A DNA stretch of 35,496 nt, from assembly GCA_900291995.1 (NCBI GenBank), contig OLMU01000858.1, positions 1-35,496 of the forward strand. The letters run 5' to 3'. Made by a program: the position numbers and the translations under genes. This document shows, in pieces, positions 6,526 through 28,146 of the stretch (its first letter is position 1; each line of letters begins with the position of its first letter). This stretch comes from Licmophora abbreviata (taxonomy: Eukaryota). A model generated the notes under the pieces. That model saw only the letters and a program-made list of their open reading frames with translations, did no database searches and was not told where the DNA came from.

Positions 6526-9392
<2,867 letters not shown>

Positions 9393-16595: not shown

Positions 16596-18469
16596 TTAGT
16601 AGCCATACTTCATCGAGCTGTAATCGATGTTGGCGAAATCGAGGTAAGCAAGCAGCTTGTAATTCCTCAGCGAATAAGGTGATCTCAGTTTGCGGTAAGC
16701 GCGTTGCTCGGCCGATCGGACTTGTGATACACTGAGATTGCCACCACAGACCTTGGTAACTTCCTTGGCCGATCTTGTCACGCCATCATCCAATCCCAGT
16801 CGCAGCCGAACAATATCTCGCTCATGGGGGCTCAGTTCCGCGGCCATGGCATTTTCCAGACACTGGCGAAGGAATGACAGCTCCACCTGGTCCTCCGGGC
16901 GAGGTTCCATGCACGGCAAAACATCTTTGAGCAGCAGTTCGGCGTCACCCATGCCGTCGCCTCCAGCGCGACTACCTTTCTGTCCCCCGCCGTTGGTCAC
17001 AAGCGGCCCATCAATAGACACGAGAGGCTTGGTGTGTTTAAGTGCCGAACGAAGCCGGTTCACAGTCACGCCAGCCTCCTGCGCAATGACATCCTCAGAT
17101 GGAATCTCTTCTTGTGTATCGTAGTACGACTTGAGTACTTTGTTGCATCTCGTCTGTTCGAAGTTTGGGGTGTGTTAGAAACACGTGCAAATAGGTCGCT
17201 GAATTTCAGCACAGAGCATCGACTTACCTTGACGTCGTGAAGCTGACTCGGCACATGCAAGCATCCGGTGGAGGCATCCTGAAAACATTTGCGGACGTAG
17301 CTTGTCACCCAGTGAGTCGCGTATGTCGAGAATCGAAGGCCTCGGCTCGGATCGTATCGGTCGGCAGCCCTCGCCAGTCCGAGAATGCCCTCTTGAATGG
17401 CTTCGTCGAGACTGGGTCGACTGGTGGTTCCCGCGTAGATGCTAACGAGACGAGAGCTCGCGTCCGATTCATATTTGGCGCTCTGCCGTGCCCATCGCTT
17501 GGCAATGCTAACAACGAGTTTTACATTGTTGCGAATGAGTCTTTCTCTAGCCACGGCTCCACCCAGCAGAAGGCGCCGAAGCTCCGCCCGACCTCCGGAA
17601 AGTCCCAGTCCATACACGATCTCGTCGTCCGAGAGCAATCGATGGTCAAAGTCATCGACAGATTCAAAATATTGATCCTCTGCTCGAGCAAGCTCAGTCT
17701 CGCTTAAGGAGAAAGCGTCTTGCTGTGATACAATGGAAATATGGTTCAGGTCGTCCCTGTCAATCTGATAGCCCCCTTCCGACTGCGCCACCAACAAAGC
17801 TTCGTTGCTGATCTCCCCCATTAGCATACTATCGTCTCTACACGTCTCTCTGGAAATCTCTTGTTGCAGAGCAATTTTCTTGTCGCAAATCAGAACACCC
17901 ATGGCCTCTCGAAGCTCCTGTGCCTTCTTCACCTTGCCACCAAGTCTGAGCTCTTCGTGTTTGGTGAGGATGTCATGGTCGAGCAACGCGTTTCTCTGGA
18001 ACACCGAGGGGCTAGATTTTCGATCGTTGTTACGTGTGGTCGTTTCCTTCGTTGGCCGACTTCCCTTGGAAGCTGAGGAAGACGTCACGTCCTGGTGTTC
18101 GTGTACCGCTACCCGCCGTTTGCTTGTCGACTTGAGATCTTTTCTGACTGTCCTTCTTCTTCGATCTACTTGTGCAGTTGTCGAGCCTGACGAGGGAATC
18201 ATGCGAAGCTGCATTGAGTCTTCACGTCGACTCCCAGCGCTCGCTGCAGTCCGTTGTCGTCGTCGACCGTGGGAGCGCGGTGGCAGCGGTGCGACATTCC
18301 TGGCCACTTCGTCGAAGCCGTCGGCGGCATTGAGCTCCGAACTCGACGTTCTGGAGCTCTGCTTATTCAAAAGGGGTGCAAACGCATTCGAATGTGTTGT
18401 ACACACAGTCAGGGCAAGACAGACGGCAGCTCGACAGCGAAAAGCGCAAGAATTCCGGTGGTTCCTCAT
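16596..18469 (-). CDS. Nucleus-encoded plastid RNA polymerase sigma-70 factor, 2 exons
   Basis: Exons 18469-17228 and 17153-16596; intron 17227-17154 (74 nt, phase 0). Bipartite presequence with SNA|FAP. Region 1.2 ILTKHEELRLG; region 2 NVKLVVSIAKRW and IQEGILGLARAADRYDPSRGLRFSTYA; region 4 LSPHERDIVRLRLGL...RAYRKLR. Confidence 0.9.
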
Positions 18470-19149
18470 GGCGAACGACGTCGACGATACGTGTACGAAC
18501 AGCAGATGGGAACAGAAAATATGGTCGCCACAGAACTGACGACAGCCGCACAAGCGAATCGAATCCGAAAGGGAAGAAGAATCCATGCATGCGCACGCGC
18601 AGAACTAACTTCAACTTGAAGCATCAATGTGAGCTCTTTCTCCACGAAGAGGAGCTCGTCACTCGAGTCTCAATAATGTGTGGCTCGCTCGCACGACTGA
18701 TCCGTGTTAAGTGAATCACGAGCCAGACACGTCGTTGATACTTTTCAATATGGTTATATTGACACTTAAGGTATCAATACAAGTTTTGAATCCCGCGTGA
18801 GAATGTCAGAGTCATAAGCATTTCGAATTGTTTCAAATACCTCATGTCTCTTGTTACGTAATGATCGATGAAAGGACGGCGCACCTTTCCAGTTTGAACT
18901 GGCAAATCAGAGCGCCAAAGAAGTCATTGATGATATCGCCGACGGACGCGTCGATGCGGAGAAGCCGGCACTATTGCTAGAGATTCGATTCATGCGGTTG
19001 TAGCAAGCTGCCAAAGAACACAGCGTGACAACAACAACATTCGCCACAGCATCTCAGTTTGAACGAGCTTCATTCTGGTGCCATTGAGTCCCTTTGTCGA
19101 AGATCAACTCTTTGAGATCCTGCAAAGGTTCGAATCGAAGTGTGCAGCC

Positions 19150-22712: not shown

Positions 22713-23418
22713 AAACGGATCGCTTCGACGCGATGGCGGCCCTCCTCTGTACCTGATGGCCATGCATGCTTCTTTGCTCTAGAGATTGTATGATTAGTTT
22801 CGATGGGACGTCATAATATTCACATTAGATTGTTTGTTTTTGTGATGTGCTCGTCGTACAGGTAAGGAGGAGCAGACCATGTTCTACCCATCGGGCAACA
22901 CTGGATATATTCCAGGGAGTGAGCAGTGGCAATGCCCATGACCCGAACCAGCAACGAGCGCCAGAAAACCAAAGGGGGCGGTGCCACTTTGGCAGTAGTT
23001 TCCCTTCATGCATGGACCAAGATTGGATACGTCATCATCCATCATACACCGGGACGTCAAAGCCTTCAGCCGAGTTGACCGGCCTCTCACTCGATTGCGA
23101 CTTCGTTCCGCCTAGGTATGCACCGAAGACGGAAACGAACGCCACGTGGAACACGAAAGACGGGAATGGAATGTGTCACGTGGGACTAAACCACGCACGA
23201 CTGAAATTCCGCCAAGCGACGGGCGCGCAAAATCTTAAATCTTCATCCCAATCTTCTTTTTCAGAAAAATACCAACCAATTCCTAGGTTCCTAGTACGAA
23301 CCCGTACATGCACACATTCATCTTCACTCTGGACTCCGTGCATCTGGCATCAAAGTTTCAAAACTTTGCAGGGAAGCAACGTACAGTGCGTTGCTGTCAT
23401 CTGCTTGTGGGCTCGATC

Positions 23419-26400
23419 ATGAACAACCCAAACGGAGAAAACGGCGCTTCTGTTCCGTCCTGGATGGCCTCGGCTGGTGTCTCAGAAGACCCAGGAAATA
23501 AGGACGATTTGGAACTCTCCCACAAGAAGCGCCTCGCAATGATTCTACGTTACATTGCCACGATGCATCACAGTGCCGACGCCCAAAAAGGAATTTCTTT
23601 CGTCCATGATGGGCTCCCTCGTCAGCAGCGTAACGAAGGTATCCTCTTTACTACATCGGATTTCCGTCATGTAATGGCGATGGATGCCGAAGGGGCATTG
23701 TTTTCATCCGCCCCGTTTTCTTTCTATGCAGCATCCACCAGCGGCTCTCCGATTGGCACCATCGCGTCTAGGAAGCAAACGATTGGGACAGCCATCAAAA
23801 ATACGCTGCTGCCGAAACCGCAGGCTGTCGATGGACGTCCTTGCTGGCTGCGGCTCACGAGGATATCGGCAGAAGTTCCGCCACGACTCACGCACGCCAT
23901 CAAGCAGTATCTCCGTTCCTGGAAAGAGTCCAGCGGACCCAACACCACTATCTCTGACCTCTTAACATCTGAGAGACTCGCAAATGCACCCAATGTCGCT
24001 CAAAGTCGACACGCCCATGAAATTAAATCCTTCCTCAGGCAGTACAAGAAATTTCTGAAGCGGAAGCGGATGCGAACATCGCTAGAGCCATTATACAATC
24101 GACTCTTCGAGTGGCTCCAGGAGCAGGGTGCACAAGAGCTTGTGTGGGGATTTGGCAGCGCCCGAATGCAGTTGGAGGGGGGTAGCTACGTGCAGGGACC
24201 ACTGCTCGAGGTACTGGTTGAGGTCGAGCTGGCCAAAGACGGAGGTCTTTTGGTTCGTCCGAGATCTCATACTGGCGTTGCGCTCAATCGAGAAGTCACG
24301 TCAGCCTTGACTGACAACGGAAACCGCGACGTTCTATCCAGTTTTCATCGCACGGTCGCTGATCTCGAGACCTATCAGTTGAGTCCGGGGCAGCCGAGTA
24401 GTTATGCGTCACTTTTGAAGCGCGTGGCTGTCGAACTCTCGCCAGGAGGCACCTTCATCTCGTCGTCTAGTGGCACCATGCCCCAAGATCGTTCCAAATT
24501 AACTGTGACCGATTCCTGGATGCTTTTTTCTCGTCCCAAGCCGAGCACTGTATGGGCCCGCGATGCATCAGCACTTGCCGAGCTCGTGCTGTCCCAGAGA
24601 ACGACACTTCCGCTCGCCGCATGGTCGTTGACTCACGGCCCAGGTGTACTCGAAGCAATGTGTCCGAACACTAAGAATGAAGGGTCGAAAGGCATTCTAT
24701 CGACTTTTAAGATCGCGTTATTTGGCAAAGAGAAGATGGAGACCCTTGCAGCGAACGTGGAGAGGCCACTTCTTCCGCTACCCTCTTCGGCGGCGCAGGA
24801 TCGGATCGCCAATTTGATCACGACAAGGAACGCTCCTGCGATCGTATGCGAAGGTCCTCCGGGAACAGGAAAGACTCATACAATCGCAAACATTGTCTGC
24901 TCTCAGTTATGTCAAGGTAAACGTGTCCTAGTTACATCCAAGGGCTCCCCGGCACTTTCCGTGCTGCGTGAGCGCCTCCCAAAGTGTGTGCAGGAGTTGT
25001 GTGTCGACGTCTCGCTTAGTGAATCCTCTGGTATGCGACAGTTGCAGCAGACCGTTGAGCGACTGGCTGACCGGGTATCTGGGATCAGCACAGACGTGCA
25101 GCAGGAGCAGTGCGAGTTGCTCCAGCGAAATATCCAGCAGCTCGAGGCCGAACGGAGCGAGATCGACCGAAAGTTGAAGGCTCACAACGAACTCACGCGA
25201 AAAATCGTGCAAAGTAAAGACGGACAAGAGATTATTGAGGTAGCGCTCTCCCTCGTCGAAACAGTTCCGTGGATGATGAGAAGCGCAACCACCTGGACAG
25301 TGGCAGACGCGAATGCGCTTGTCGAACGTGTCGATTCCCTTCACGTCAATGCAACCCACCCCCATGGCCGAGTGTCTGGCTGTCAGAGTTTTCCGTCAAA
25401 AGCGCTCGTTTCACTAGTTGCGGCGAAATCTGGAGAATCAGCATCGTATGCAAAGACGGCTGCTGCTCGGGCGATTAGCTCAATCCCCTTGTTCGGAAAC
25501 TCAACAAAGTTGGCGCAAGAACTGGCGCAACAAGAAGTCTCAGAGCTCAAGGTTGACGGTGCCGCTCCTACGTCAAAAGCGGATTGGAAGGTGGTACTAT
25601 GCGCGCTACGGCACATTCAATCGATGAACGAGTTCCATTGTGAAGTTGTCACGCCCCTCGTGACCCGCGATGACTGGTCGGAAGTTGACGTATATGACCA
25701 GGCAGCTGACAGAAAAGCTTTTCAAAACAGCTTTGTTGATAATCTAGGTAAACTTGCCAGAATGAAAGAGCTATGCTGGAAGCAAAACGTATCGGGCGAA
25801 ATCGAACGCGCTGTGACAGCTCAGCAGATGGATGCACGTAGAAGCAAGATAACGCTGACTCTCCAGCGCTTGGCGGAAGACTTGGTAGATGCAACAGTCG
25901 TGACATCCTTGAGTCGAATGTTCACCCCCGACGCTCAAAGCGCGCTCATTCGTTTTGCTCAGATAAGTGGGAAGGCGAAATTCAGTCGATCGTCTCAGGT
26001 GTCGAAGATGACTCAACGCCAGCGTCGCCATCGGCAGGAGTATCTGGATGCATTTGAGAAGTGCGTGCGATATATTCCTTGCTGGATTCTTACATCTTCG
26101 CAAATCAGTGACTATCTCCCCGCAGAGTTTGGTCTCTTTGACTTGGTCATAATTGACGAGGCATCCCAGAGCGACATTACTGTCCTTCCGGGTATTCTCC
26201 GTGGAAAGCAATGGTTAATCGTTGGAGACGGCAAGCAGGTTAGTCCAAGCGAGAGCTTCGTTTCGGAGGCGCAGATTGATAGCCTCCGTGCCGCGCTCCC
26301 AGAGTCGCCACTTGACGACAGTCTCCTTCCGGGCCACAGTTTCTTCGATCTGTGTGCGCAGGCCTTTCCGAGTGGTCGGGTGGTTCTCAGCGAACACTTT

Positions 26401-28146
26401 CGATGCGCTCCTGAAATTATTGACTTCAGCAACGTCCAGTTCTACAACGGTCGCCTGATCCCCCTCCGCCTCCCCACAAGTGCAGAGCGCCTGCAGCCGT
26501 CGATTGTCGACGTGAGAGTAAAAAACGCGACCAAAGTCGGCAAGATCAACGAGAAAGAATGTGACACCATCGTTGCAATGGTTCGCGATTTCGTAACCAA
26601 GTCTGCAACGGACTCCTTTCCAAGAAGTATCGGGGTCATTTCTCTCGTTGGCGATGAACAGAGTCGCCTCATCCGTGGTCGACTGTTGGACTCCATTGGC
26701 CCTCAGAAGTACAAGGAGCATGATCTTTTGGTGGGTGACGCCCCGACATTCCAAGGTGCGGAACGCGATGTAATATTTCTAAGCATGGTCTGTTCACCTG
26801 GAGCAGTGCCGACTCAAGCGCAGTTGATGCACGCACAGCGGGCAAATGTTGCTCTCTCGAGGGCACGCGATAGAATGTTGCTCGTTCGAAGCATCGATGC
26901 AAACCACATTTCAAGCCAGGAAGACATTAAGCTTCCAATACTAGAATTCTTTGCTAAGCATGGCAAGAAACTCGATGAGCCCCTTGAACAAGTCAGTCAC
27001 GACAGCGGACAGCGCGATGGCGGGATCGTGCCCTGCCGTGCTCAGGCTGAGCAACTCTTGGAGAGTATGCTCTGCAGTCGAGGGTACACGGTGAGACGCA
27101 TGGGGATCGTCTGGCATGATGCTCTTTGCGTGGAGAACGCTTCTAGCGGAAGGAGAGCAGCGGTGTGCATCGATGGTGCTGGCGAAAGTACACATCACTG
27201 GAATCGTCTCGTCACCCAGCAAAAGTCGATTGAGCGAGTGGGTTGGAAGTCGATTCGAGTTGATGCATTGTCGTTTCTGATGAACTTTTCAAGTACGCTT
27301 CAATCTGTAGAAGGTTTTCTACGTGACGCTGGTGTGGAACCAGTGACAGAAAATGACACCGAAGCCGTGCTCGACCATATTGAAATCGATAATGAGGTTG
27401 CGGACGAGGACATGGAGGTAGACGAGGCAAATGTGGTGCAAGAGCAAGTGGACGACGACGAATCGATGGACGATGTGGACGATACTATTGTTGTTATCAG
27501 CAGTGATGAAGACGACGGCAAAACAGGTGATCTCAAAGTGGGGGCGATCGTGCGAGTTGAGCAGAAGATCGAAGACGAGGGAATCGACCCGTCGGCCTTC
27601 GGGGATGTGGTCGATTTGGGATTCCTTCGCGGGTCGCTTGTCGGGACGGACAGTGAAGGGCTTGAGGATCCGTATGACTATGGCAGCGGGCGACCGCTCC
27701 GCTTTTCAGGTAGAGAGCATGAGAACAGCGTCGTAAACGACTTTGAGTATCGTGACTCTGACGACGACGATATCAACAACGACAACAGTGGAAATGGAGT
27801 CGCTCGGCATCCACGAGGAGAAGAGGATAGTGTAGCTAAGAGAGGCCATGACTCGGATGTGAGCGAAGGAACGTTCGACAGACCGAAAAAGCGACGTCGC
27901 AAATCGCAGCGTCGGCTAGACAGCTACGCTCGTGATCCGCGTTGGTACCCACGACACAAACGCCTTGACTCAGCTGACAACGAAAATGAGTGGTATGACA
28001 CTGACTCCGACCTGCCGGAAAGGCGCAGGTCTTCTCCGTCACTTGATGAGTCTGTCCAAGAAGTTGATGATTGTCGGAAAGTAGAGCCACTGAAAGAAGC
28101 GCTTGAGGCAAGCTTGAATGCAAACGCCAGCAAGGACAACGATTGA
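23419..28146 (+). CDS. Large SF1 (UPF1/DNA2-like AAA_11/AAA_12) helicase with DUF4011-like N-region, Vsr/MTES_1575-like nuclease domain and acidic tail
   Basis: Single uninterrupted ORF. Walker A GPPGTGKT (24853-24876), VLVTS, DLVIIDEASQ (DEASQ from 26155), VGDGKQ, EHFRC, FQGAERD, RANVALSRARD. Then RGYTV...RRAAVCIDG...QKSIERVGWKSIRV (~27040-27330). Start at MNNPNGE (23419) is inferred; the ORF opens at 23308. Confidence 0.85.
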   Translation: MNNPNGENGASVPSWMASAGVSEDPGNKDDLELSHKKRLAMILRYIATMHHSADAQKGISFVHDGLPRQQRNEGILFTTSDFRHVMAMDAEGALFSSAPFSFYAASTSGSPIGTIASRKQTIGTAIKNTLLPKPQAVDGRPCWLRLTRISAEVPPRLTHAIKQYLRSWKESSGPNTTISDLLTSERLANAPNVAQSRHAHEIKSFLRQYKKFLKRKRMRTSLEPLYNRLFEWLQEQGAQELVWGFGSARMQLEGGSYVQGPLLEVLVEVELAKDGGLLVRPRSHTGVALNREVTSALTDNGNRDVLSSFHRTVADLETYQLSPGQPSSYASLLKRVAVELSPGGTFISSSSGTMPQDRSKLTVTDSWMLFSRPKPSTVWARDASALAELVLSQRTTLPLAAWSLTHGPGVLEAMCPNTKNEGSKGILSTFKIALFGKEKMETLAANVERPLLPLPSSAAQDRIANLITTRNAPAIVCEGPPGTGKTHTIANIVCSQLCQGKRVLVTSKGSPALSVLRERLPKCVQELCVDVSLSESSGMRQLQQTVERLADRVSGISTDVQQEQCELLQRNIQQLEAERSEIDRKLKAHNELTRKIVQSKDGQEIIEVALSLVETVPWMMRSATTWTVADANALVERVDSLHVNATHPHGRVSGCQSFPSKALVSLVAAKSGESASYAKTAAARAISSIPLFGNSTKLAQELAQQEVSELKVDGAAPTSKADWKVVLCALRHIQSMNEFHCEVVTPLVTRDDWSEVDVYDQAADRKAFQNSFVDNLGKLARMKELCWKQNVSGEIERAVTAQQMDARRSKITLTLQRLAEDLVDATVVTSLSRMFTPDAQSALIRFAQISGKAKFSRSSQVSKMTQRQRRHRQEYLDAFEKCVRYIPCWILTSSQISDYLPAEFGLFDLVIIDEASQSDITVLPGILRGKQWLIVGDGKQVSPSESFVSEAQIDSLRAALPESPLDDSLLPGHSFFDLCAQAFPSGRVVLSEHFRCAPEIIDFSNVQFYNGRLIPLRLPTSAERLQPSIVDVRVKNATKVGKINEKECDTIVAMVRDFVTKSATDSFPRSIGVISLVGDEQSRLIRGRLLDSIGPQKYKEHDLLVGDAPTFQGAERDVIFLSMVCSPGAVPTQAQLMHAQRANVALSRARDRMLLVRSIDANHISSQEDIKLPILEFFAKHGKKLDEPLEQVSHDSGQRDGGIVPCRAQAEQLLESMLCSRGYTVRRMGIVWHDALCVENASSGRRAAVCIDGAGESTHHWNRLVTQQKSIERVGWKSIRVDALSFLMNFSSTLQSVEGFLRDAGVEPVTENDTEAVLDHIEIDNEVADEDMEVDEANVVQEQVDDDESMDDVDDTIVVISSDEDDGKTGDLKVGAIVRVEQKIEDEGIDPSAFGDVVDLGFLRGSLVGTDSEGLEDPYDYGSGRPLRFSGREHENSVVNDFEYRDSDDDDINNDNSGNGVARHPRGEEDSVAKRGHDSDVSEGTFDRPKKRRRKSQRRLDSYARDPRWYPRHKRLDSADNENEWYDTDSDLPERRRSSPSLDESVQEVDDCRKVEPLKEALEASLNANASKDND

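Follow-up and report, generated by a model that had tools for sequence, protein, structure and literature searches.

A putative nuclease-dead branch of a prokaryotic-type helicase-Vsr protein family in the nuclear genome of the diatom Licmophora abbreviata

Positions 1 to 35,496 of contig OLMU01000858.1 (assembly GCA_900291995.1) of Licmophora abbreviata, hereafter the window, contain a single uninterrupted open reading frame (ORF) at 23308-28146 on the plus strand, which according to the ORF listing and translation encodes a protein of 1612 amino acids (aa) plus stop. We read this protein, with a probability of roughly 0.7, as a nuclear-encoded eukaryotic, nuclease-dead branch of a prokaryotic-type helicase-Vsr family, and probably as a non-nucleolytic nuclear helicase or nucleic-acid sensor of defence-type ancestry. 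The helicase has been kept, the nuclease site lost and a new tail gained, which predicts that sensing or remodelling has taken the place of cutting as the mechanism. Prokaryotic defence genes that persist in eukaryotes are sought as clues to the origin of immunity, and diatoms, among the major primary producers of the sea, have antiviral and genome-surveillance systems that are poorly understood. A preliminary description had taken the gene for a eukaryotic homologue of the bacterial Hhe-type anti-phage proteins, in which a DUF4011 domain, a helicase and a Vsr-type nuclease are combined. All features described below are on the plus strand unless indicated otherwise.

The domain at 27028-27342 has a Vsr-like restriction-endonuclease fold of the MTES_1575/DUF559 type in which the catalytic residues are replaced. 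The MTES_1575 Vsr-type domain is defined in PMC3710099; in the window protein the corresponding Pfam match stayed below threshold (residues 1253-1335, 23.7 bits versus 38.2). With a model of the nuclease domain, Foldseek returned only PDB rows with E-values of 0.034 and above, the credible ones all being endonuclease-fold proteins, and since these rows are weak the fold assignment is based on the VIA comparison. Sequence identity between the diatom domain and Vsr, DUF559, I-Bth0305I (EDxHD-type) and the eukaryotic RAP domains is 11-15%, and the active-site residues of the Vsr/DUF559/I-Bth0305I type are missing in the diatom protein. The preliminary description was correct in placing a restriction-endonuclease fold at the C-terminus, and the strings it quoted from this region were found as RGYTV (27079), AAVCIDGAG (27157) and IERVGWKSIRV (27229-27261).

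Loss of the active site was assessed in 241 proteins (103 from the eukaryotic clade and 138 bacterial), of which the 224 with an ER.GW anchor were aligned to one profile and 17 were dropped. The pattern FE(R)...ID..VE...IE.DGD..H is near-invariant in the 134 bacterial members (E 133, D 134, E 131, D 134, D 131, H 126), whereas the eukaryotic sequences, i.e. the diatom clade and the more distant P0096 clade, have lost most of it. The Asp of 'ID', present in 134/134 bacterial sequences, is found in 0/84 diatom-clade sequences, which have Ala or Gly instead, and in 0/6 of the P0096 clade, while the Glu of 'IExDG' goes from 131/134 to 0/84 (mostly Leu, Cys, Met or Ile) and 0/6, and the His of the motif from 126/134 to 0/84 and 0/6. 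The Asp of 'DGD' (131/134 in bacteria) is present in 4/84 and 0/6, and the Glu of 'FER' (133/134) in 15/84 and 0/6. Structural positions were kept in the diatom clade, with the Trp of 'GW' in 83/84 and the Glu of 'ER.GW' in 78/84 sequences, and this retention of structural alongside loss of catalytic positions suggests that the domain is under constraint as a non-catalytic module. Judged from the alignment, no eukaryotic copy examined has retained the nuclease active site, which makes it probable that the protein is a helicase or sensor and not a DNA cutter; the earlier label 'helicase-nuclease' therefore does not suit the diatom protein.

A homologue search over a set of 5.8 billion proteins indicated that the gene is conserved across pennate and centric diatoms, with a sister clade (P0096) in marine protists. 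Proteins P0002-P0095 share 39-63% identity with the window protein, many over their full length, and every named member is a diatom. Orthologues covering 99-100% of the query at 47-63% identity come from the pennate genera Seminavis, Nitzschia, Cylindrotheca, Pseudo-nitzschia, Fistulifera (two homeologues) and Amphora and the centric genera Thalassiosira, Attheya and Extubocellulus, to which a further search added Entomoneis; the pennate Mayamaea is likewise among the named diatom matches. Several of them stem from the Marine Microbial Eukaryote Transcriptome Sequencing Project (MMETSP) or other transcriptomes, and orthologues are thus transcribed. P0096 ranks next after the diatoms (33% identity over 96% of the query), and a 121-aa fragment from Picomonas single-cell data in EukProt belongs to its cluster; a metagenome scan with P0096 gave only relatives at 50% identity or less, none of them from the P0096 clade. 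A second diatom paralogue group is represented by P0362 (Seminavis robusta Sro16_g011930) and P0315, and in the sequences compared the nuclease site is dead in both groups. Seminavis robusta has at least three family members, and P0334 from this species (Sro406_g136320) has a disrupted Walker A motif (GPPGNDKT), giving it the appearance of a degenerate or mis-modelled gene. Our literature search found no description of the diatom family, and 'Gao Hhe' matches in eukaryote proteomes are, in the relevant part of one preprint, listed without description (bioRxiv 10.1101/2023.09.13.557551).

By sequence comparison, the closest non-eukaryotic relatives are an uncharacterised bacterial single-gene family of roughly 1500-1800 aa that has its domains in the same order. 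The matched bacterial proteins, 1478-1633 aa in length, are 36-40% identical to the query over about 46% of it (E about 1e-130, about 450 bits), and in the family alignment the bacterial relatives align end to end with the diatom protein, N-terminal domain (N-domain) included. These full-length proteins show the order of N-domain, superfamily 1 (SF1) helicase and MTES_1575/Vsr domain which the preliminary description had given for bacteria. A typical annotation is 'AAA domain-containing protein' or 'very-short-patch-repair endonuclease', as with WP_221901431.1 from a Bathymodiolus symbiont, and the NCBIfam scan of the relatives found no equivalog for the family. Common to the bacterial family and the diatom protein are the WLRxxR, ELxWGxG and PLxExxVExE motifs of the N-domain, the split SF1 helicase, the PCWIM motif ahead of Walker B and the MTES_1575 domain. 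Unlike the diatom protein, the bacterial members have an intact E-D-H site, score 102-108 bits with Pfam MTES_1575, carry a longer insert in the helicase and are without the acidic tail. Many of them (P0117, P0180, P0189-P0194 and others) have an additional C-terminal domain of the GreA/GreB type (PF01272), DUF3320 (PF11784) occurs in some, and one has a fusion to TPR repeats.

A scan with one genome per GTDB species gave at least 353 confirmed stretches of the bacterial family, and the 62 loci kept among the listed matches are from Pseudomonadota, Acidobacteriota, Verrucomicrobiota, Planctomycetota, Nitrospirota, Chloroflexota, Gemmatimonadota and others, while HMMER retrieved 2360 proteins at E ≤ 1e-30 from 1.84 billion representatives, with related families counted in. 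Across 51 bacterial loci we inspected 96 immediate neighbours, of which 42 had no Pfam match at 1e-10 and 14 were defence or mobile-element genes: type I restriction R subunits (2), a SNF2 helicase, transposases (2), an integrase, MqsA, DUF4411, Uma2, AAA_21, DUF1156, DarT and S24 peptidases (2). As no neighbour was conserved at these loci, a two-gene or operon organisation was rejected; the neighbourhoods fit a stand-alone accessory gene and are no proof of a role in defence. In three Psychrobacter genomes (L022, L025 and L043) the family gene adjoins a convergent UvrD-type helicase gene, a synteny seen within this genus only. Locus L044 (7330-12000) has a full-length member beside a tRNA synthetase gene on a contig labelled as phytoplasma, which is unexpected in so reduced a genome, and loci L045, L049 and L053 have in-frame stops in the first 1290 bases of the match, that of L049 being about 0.9 kb longer than is usual; frameshifts, insertions or offset coordinates are possible causes.

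The relationship between the eukaryotic and bacterial proteins was assessed with two IQ-TREE trees (LG+C20), both rooted on Hhe and on ProA, the protein of the Prometheus system, with rows hand-picked for diversity (the larger with 60 rows and 1177 columns, the smaller with 39 and 1041). Each tree sets the family apart from Hhe and ProA at a support of 100, and the eukaryotic sequences form one clade (Shimodaira-Hasegawa-like approximate likelihood ratio test 90 and 84), suggesting that the eukaryotic genes are of a single origin. The diatom group of the window is supported at 100 and 99 and is joined by the P0362/P0315 group at 100, with the P0096 clade as the outermost branch within the eukaryotic clade, which together imply at least two old diatom paralogue groups.

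Several observations weigh against a nuclease-dead gene of prokaryotic descent. Both trees resolve the eukaryotic clade as the sister of the sampled bacteria and not as nested among them, with moderate support (bacterial clade 89 and 87) and a long outgroup branch, and the direction of transfer is therefore not given by the tree. In the nuclease domain one acidic residue of the motif is retained (Asp in 42/84 and Glu in 40/84 diatom-clade sequences), as is the Glu of 'VVE' (82/84), such that an unusual residual nuclease activity would be conceivable from the sequences. Among the neighbours at the 51 bacterial loci there is no recurring partner gene, and only the 14 of 96 mentioned above relate to defence or mobile elements. 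The sister placement would also suit an ancestrally eukaryotic family, an arrival via an endosymbiont or a passage from eukaryotes to bacteria, in each case without bacterial acquisition by a diatom ancestor. We consider this unlikely, since the named eukaryotic matches are diatoms only, save for the Picomonas fragment in the P0096 cluster, whereas the listed bacterial members come from many phyla and the outgroups Hhe and ProA are prokaryotic; moreover, the active site is intact in the bacterial form and degenerate in the eukaryotic form, and the long outgroup branch may pull the long eukaryotic branch towards the root. On the same grounds of distribution, outgroups and active site, passage from prokaryote to eukaryote is the favoured direction. 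The earlier statement that the gene is bacterially derived is hence plausible by distribution, on which it has to rest, but it is not reflected in the trees as nesting.

With regard to the helicase, the first part of domain 1A lies at 24787-25227 and contains the Walker A motif GPPGTGKT (24853-24876, residues 516-523; G516-K522 invariant), and is followed by an insert of about residues 641-905 (25228-26022), after which the rest of the core (26023-26907) contains Walker B DEASQ (26155-26169, residues 950-954), motif III with GDGKQVSP (973-980), EHFRC (1029-1033) and motifs V and VI, with TFQGAERDVIFLS at residues 1147-1159 and QRANVALSRARDR at 1177-1189 among the helicase motifs. Pfam AAA_11 was matched in two stretches (57.5 bits, the best at 509-629) and AAA_12 at 1011-1193 (71.6 bits). 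The family alignment of diatoms, P0096 and bacteria shows no variation in Walker A, Walker B and motifs III, V and VI, and by these motifs the protein is an SF1B UPF1-like ATPase/helicase with intact motifs. The complete set of motifs and the long insert splitting the helicase, both reported in the preliminary description, were confirmed, the spacing between Walker A and Walker B being about 425 residues with AAA_11 split in two. The insert is homologous to the longer bacterial insert, in which the family alignment shows additional blocks, and its columns W655, W760, R845, L868, L880 and F883 are invariant between diatoms and bacteria. A divergent member of one of the standard eukaryotic SF1 families (UPF1, SETX, IGHMBP2, DNA2, MOV10 or ZNFX1) would account for the UPF1-like motifs and for the matches of a phmmer search against the PDB (IGHMBP2 1.2e-9, Sen1 2e-6, UPF1 4e-6, ranging to 1e-5), but these cover just 100-280 residues and fall far below the full-length colinear bacterial matches of about 450 bits. 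The IGHMBP2 family profile TIGR00376 scored 96.7 bits versus a cut-off of 348.9, and Pfam found no accessory domain of the UPF1, SETX, IGHMBP2 or DNA2 families in the window protein. We regard such an assignment as very improbable, in agreement with the preliminary description, which had set the protein apart from these helicases.

The conserved N-domain, about residues 72-480 (23521-24747), is common to the bacterial family according to the family alignment, in which diatoms, P0096 and bacteria without exception share W180, R185, Y263, G283 and P318. An AlphaFold2 model of this domain (mean predicted local distance difference test 84.2, predicted template modelling score 0.77) matched no solved fold, and its best match in the BFVD was an 'AAA domain protein' from a Myoviridae metagenome record (E = 2.5e-3, probability 0.98), with a template modelling score of just 0.24 and a root-mean-square deviation of 10.7. 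The preliminary description had assigned the N-terminus to DUF4011, and the strings on which this was based are present, with LYNRLFEW at 24091 and VALNREV ending at 24297. The DUF4011 profile of Pfam (PF13195, gathering score 22.2 bits) was not matched by the window protein up to E = 1, nor by any of eight relatives up to E = 0.01, and it was found in 0/5 genomes with bacterial relatives versus 15/201 sampled genomes of the same class. When 117 family N-termini were compared with 11 DUF4011 regions using hhalign in local mode, one weak alignment was obtained (81 columns, score 23, E = 0.051, probability 1%), which pairs residues 249-328 (24052-24291; LYNRLFEW...ELVWGFG...GPLLEVLVEVEL...LLVRPR) with the LYLALGFL...APLILLPV segment of DUF4011, the very motif noted earlier. 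This DUF4011-like segment is modelled as a long helix followed by a beta-sheet.

Two further searches gave weak signals for the same segment. A hidden Markov model (HMM) of the family core matched 5 of 11 distinct DUF4011 proteins in the same register (hmmsearch, per-sequence p = 2e-4 to 3e-3), all five being ProA-type or unclassified, while a sixth was at 0.04, the true Hhe pair at p = 0.15-0.21 and the best reversed control at p = 0.02. In a protein language model search with the N-domains of the diatom protein and the bacterial P0117, DUF4011 clusters were the top named ones (0.87 and 0.86), below the lead threshold of 0.9. A PDB sequence search with a ProA-type DUF4011 protein found nothing, and there is consequently no solved DUF4011 structure for comparison. 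The methods agree in direction, and the N-domain is possibly a distant relative of DUF4011, although this agreement is not a demonstration; of the earlier assignment, the motif alignment has been recovered, but a Pfam match has not.

Following the nuclease domain is a eukaryote-specific acidic tail of 267 aa (27343-28143), delimited by composition and by the family alignment, in which 76 residues are acidic (47 Asp, 29 Glu). It contains a basic cluster PKKRRRKSQRR (27883-27915), which we infer to be a nuclear localisation signal, and the motifs RRLDxYxRDxRWYP (27910-27951) and WYDTDSD (27991-28011), which can be aligned among several diatoms but are missing in the bacterial relatives. With the stretch 27883-28011 the tail thus closes in a module conserved in diatoms, which may combine a nuclear localisation signal with a docking or phosphorylation motif.

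The ORF as a whole is colinear with full-length diatom orthologues, several of them transcriptome-derived, and hence no intron is required, in line with the intronless 4.7-kb ORF of the preliminary description; that length corresponds to an alternative start at 23419 (Met38), which is the likely one. Homology to the orthologues starts at residue 72, which makes both starts compatible with the conserved sequence, and given its 1612 aa and full-length homologues at E = 0 the ORF is not a product of chance. Its surroundings are plainly eukaryotic and the gene is nuclear-encoded, as the earlier description of a eukaryotic gene had it: flanking ORFs encode an MCM OB/P-loop fragment, the splicing factor Isy1, a condensin II non-SMC subunit, a RING finger protein, a CRAL/TRIO protein, fructosamine kinase, a protein kinase with cyclic-nucleotide-binding and EF-hand domains, a leucine-rich repeat protein and a sigma-70-type factor. 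One could suspect a bacterial contaminant in the assembly, or a recently transferred gene in decay, from the sequencing runs containing part of the window, which are marine-metagenome DNA only (shares of 0.33 or less), with no RNA run listed. Eukaryotic genes on both sides on the same contig exclude contamination, there is no GC shift (0.52-0.54 along the gene versus 0.48-0.55 window-wide), and the ORF is intact with orthologues in many cultured diatoms, transcriptomes included, so that we give this explanation next to no weight. Among the neighbours, the ORF at 17066-18586 on the minus strand has a sigma-70 region 2 and presumably encodes a nuclear-encoded plastid sigma factor, which fits an algal nuclear genome, and the ORF at 6807-7913 combines an MCM OB domain with just the beginning of the MCM P-loop domain; the remainder of this gene probably lies beyond an intron or frame change.

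With regard to function, a nuclease-dead helicase of prokaryotic descent would have entered the ancestor of the diatoms and the P0096-clade eukaryotes from a prokaryote, and would then have been domesticated as an ATP-driven helicase or translocase recognising nucleic-acid structure in the nucleus. The N-domain and the dead Vsr domain, the latter serving as a binding module, would recognise the nucleic acid, on which the protein would translocate or which it would unwind, and it would act by remodelling or by recruitment of factors through the tail, with no cleavage by the protein itself. Candidate targets are viral or foreign nucleic acid, or endogenous R-loops and replication intermediates, and the diatom-wide conservation with one copy per paralogue group fits either a housekeeping surveillance function or a conserved sensor. 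A more specific proposal, which we regard as tentative and on balance doubtful, is that diatoms and at least one marine protist lineage have a conserved innate-immunity-type sensor derived from a prokaryotic Prometheus/Hhe-like defence helicase, with its nuclease disarmed, which would detect viral or aberrant nucleic-acid structures in the nucleus and signal, or recruit effectors, via the acidic tail. Were this to hold, 'ancestral immunity' would gain a new eukaryotic branch, in an algal group that is ecologically dominant.

Finally, we compared the family with known defence systems. The highest-ranking PADLOC profile for the window protein was the candidate system PDC-S37 (138.1 bits), followed by MkoC and MkoA, which reflect helicase similarity, and by Hhe (87 bits). 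The window protein aligns to positions 909-1368 of the 1550 of PDC-S37, whereas for the bacterial relatives (223-265 bits) the match spans helicase, insert and nuclease, leaving the N-terminal 300-400 residues unmatched; no description of 'PDC-S37' was found in our literature search. For Hhe, which is reportedly to be attributed to Gao et al. 2020, and for ProA, the NCBIfam cut-offs are 2000 bits (NF042953) and 1500 bits (NF058533), respectively. The window protein scored 159.6 bits with ProA (residues 913-1375, its best NCBIfam match) and 130.8 bits with Hhe (residues 904-1207 only), and the bacterial relatives scored 230-286 and 176-196 bits. Controls were obtained from a PF13195 search of 201 gammaproteobacterial genomes, 15 of which matched and from which eight full genes were fetched; two of these are Hhe (L079 with 2529 bits, L081 with 2433 bits) and four are ProA (1850-2414 bits), with cross-scores of 781-1163.

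A true Hhe- or Prometheus-type active helicase-nuclease, providing antiviral protection by degradation of nucleic acid as the preliminary description had it, would be consistent with the shared domain order, the Vsr-like fold, the weak DUF4011 signals and the presence of Hhe and ProA among the best named matches. Kinship is indeed evident, as both are detectable as distant relatives with the PADLOC and NCBIfam profiles, but the protein is a member of neither Hhe nor ProA: the scores are about one tenth of the cut-offs and confined to helicase 2A and the nuclease part, Pfam finds neither DUF4011 nor DUF3320 (PF11784, no row for the window protein), and the catalytic Asp, Glu and His are present in none of the 84 and six eukaryotic sequences, which together make an active nuclease of this kind quite improbable. 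The Hhe system itself (PADLOC PDLC02194) has the same domain order and homologous helicase 2A and nuclease parts, and differs by the score far under its cut-off and by the N-domain profile, which misses the true Hhe pair.

Prometheus resembles the window protein in being a large single protein with an N-terminal domain, an SF1/DNA2-like helicase with an insert and an MTES_1575-type domain. It is described in PMC13700489, which cites van den Berg et al. 2024 for it, as a validated single-protein anti-phage system whose four domains, DUF4011 and DUF3320 among them, are each essential. ProA has the Pfam DUF4011 domain and a C-terminal DUF3320, and some members in our control sequences have a transglutaminase-like N-terminus, whereas the window protein matches neither of the two Pfam domains and its nuclease site is dead. 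A large DUF4011 gene that flanks the defence hotspot cDHS1 in Pseudomonas aeruginosa is reported to be core, occurring in every isolate (PMC10250203), a status which is odd for a defence-type gene. The low Hhe and ProA scores and the absence of PF13195 from the five genomes with bacterial relatives indicate that the diatom gene and its bacterial sisters are, at the sequence level, a separate family within the broad group of proteins with an N-domain, a split SF1 helicase and a Vsr-type nuclease, and the large bacterial single-gene family, distinct from both Hhe and Prometheus, is a candidate defence system.

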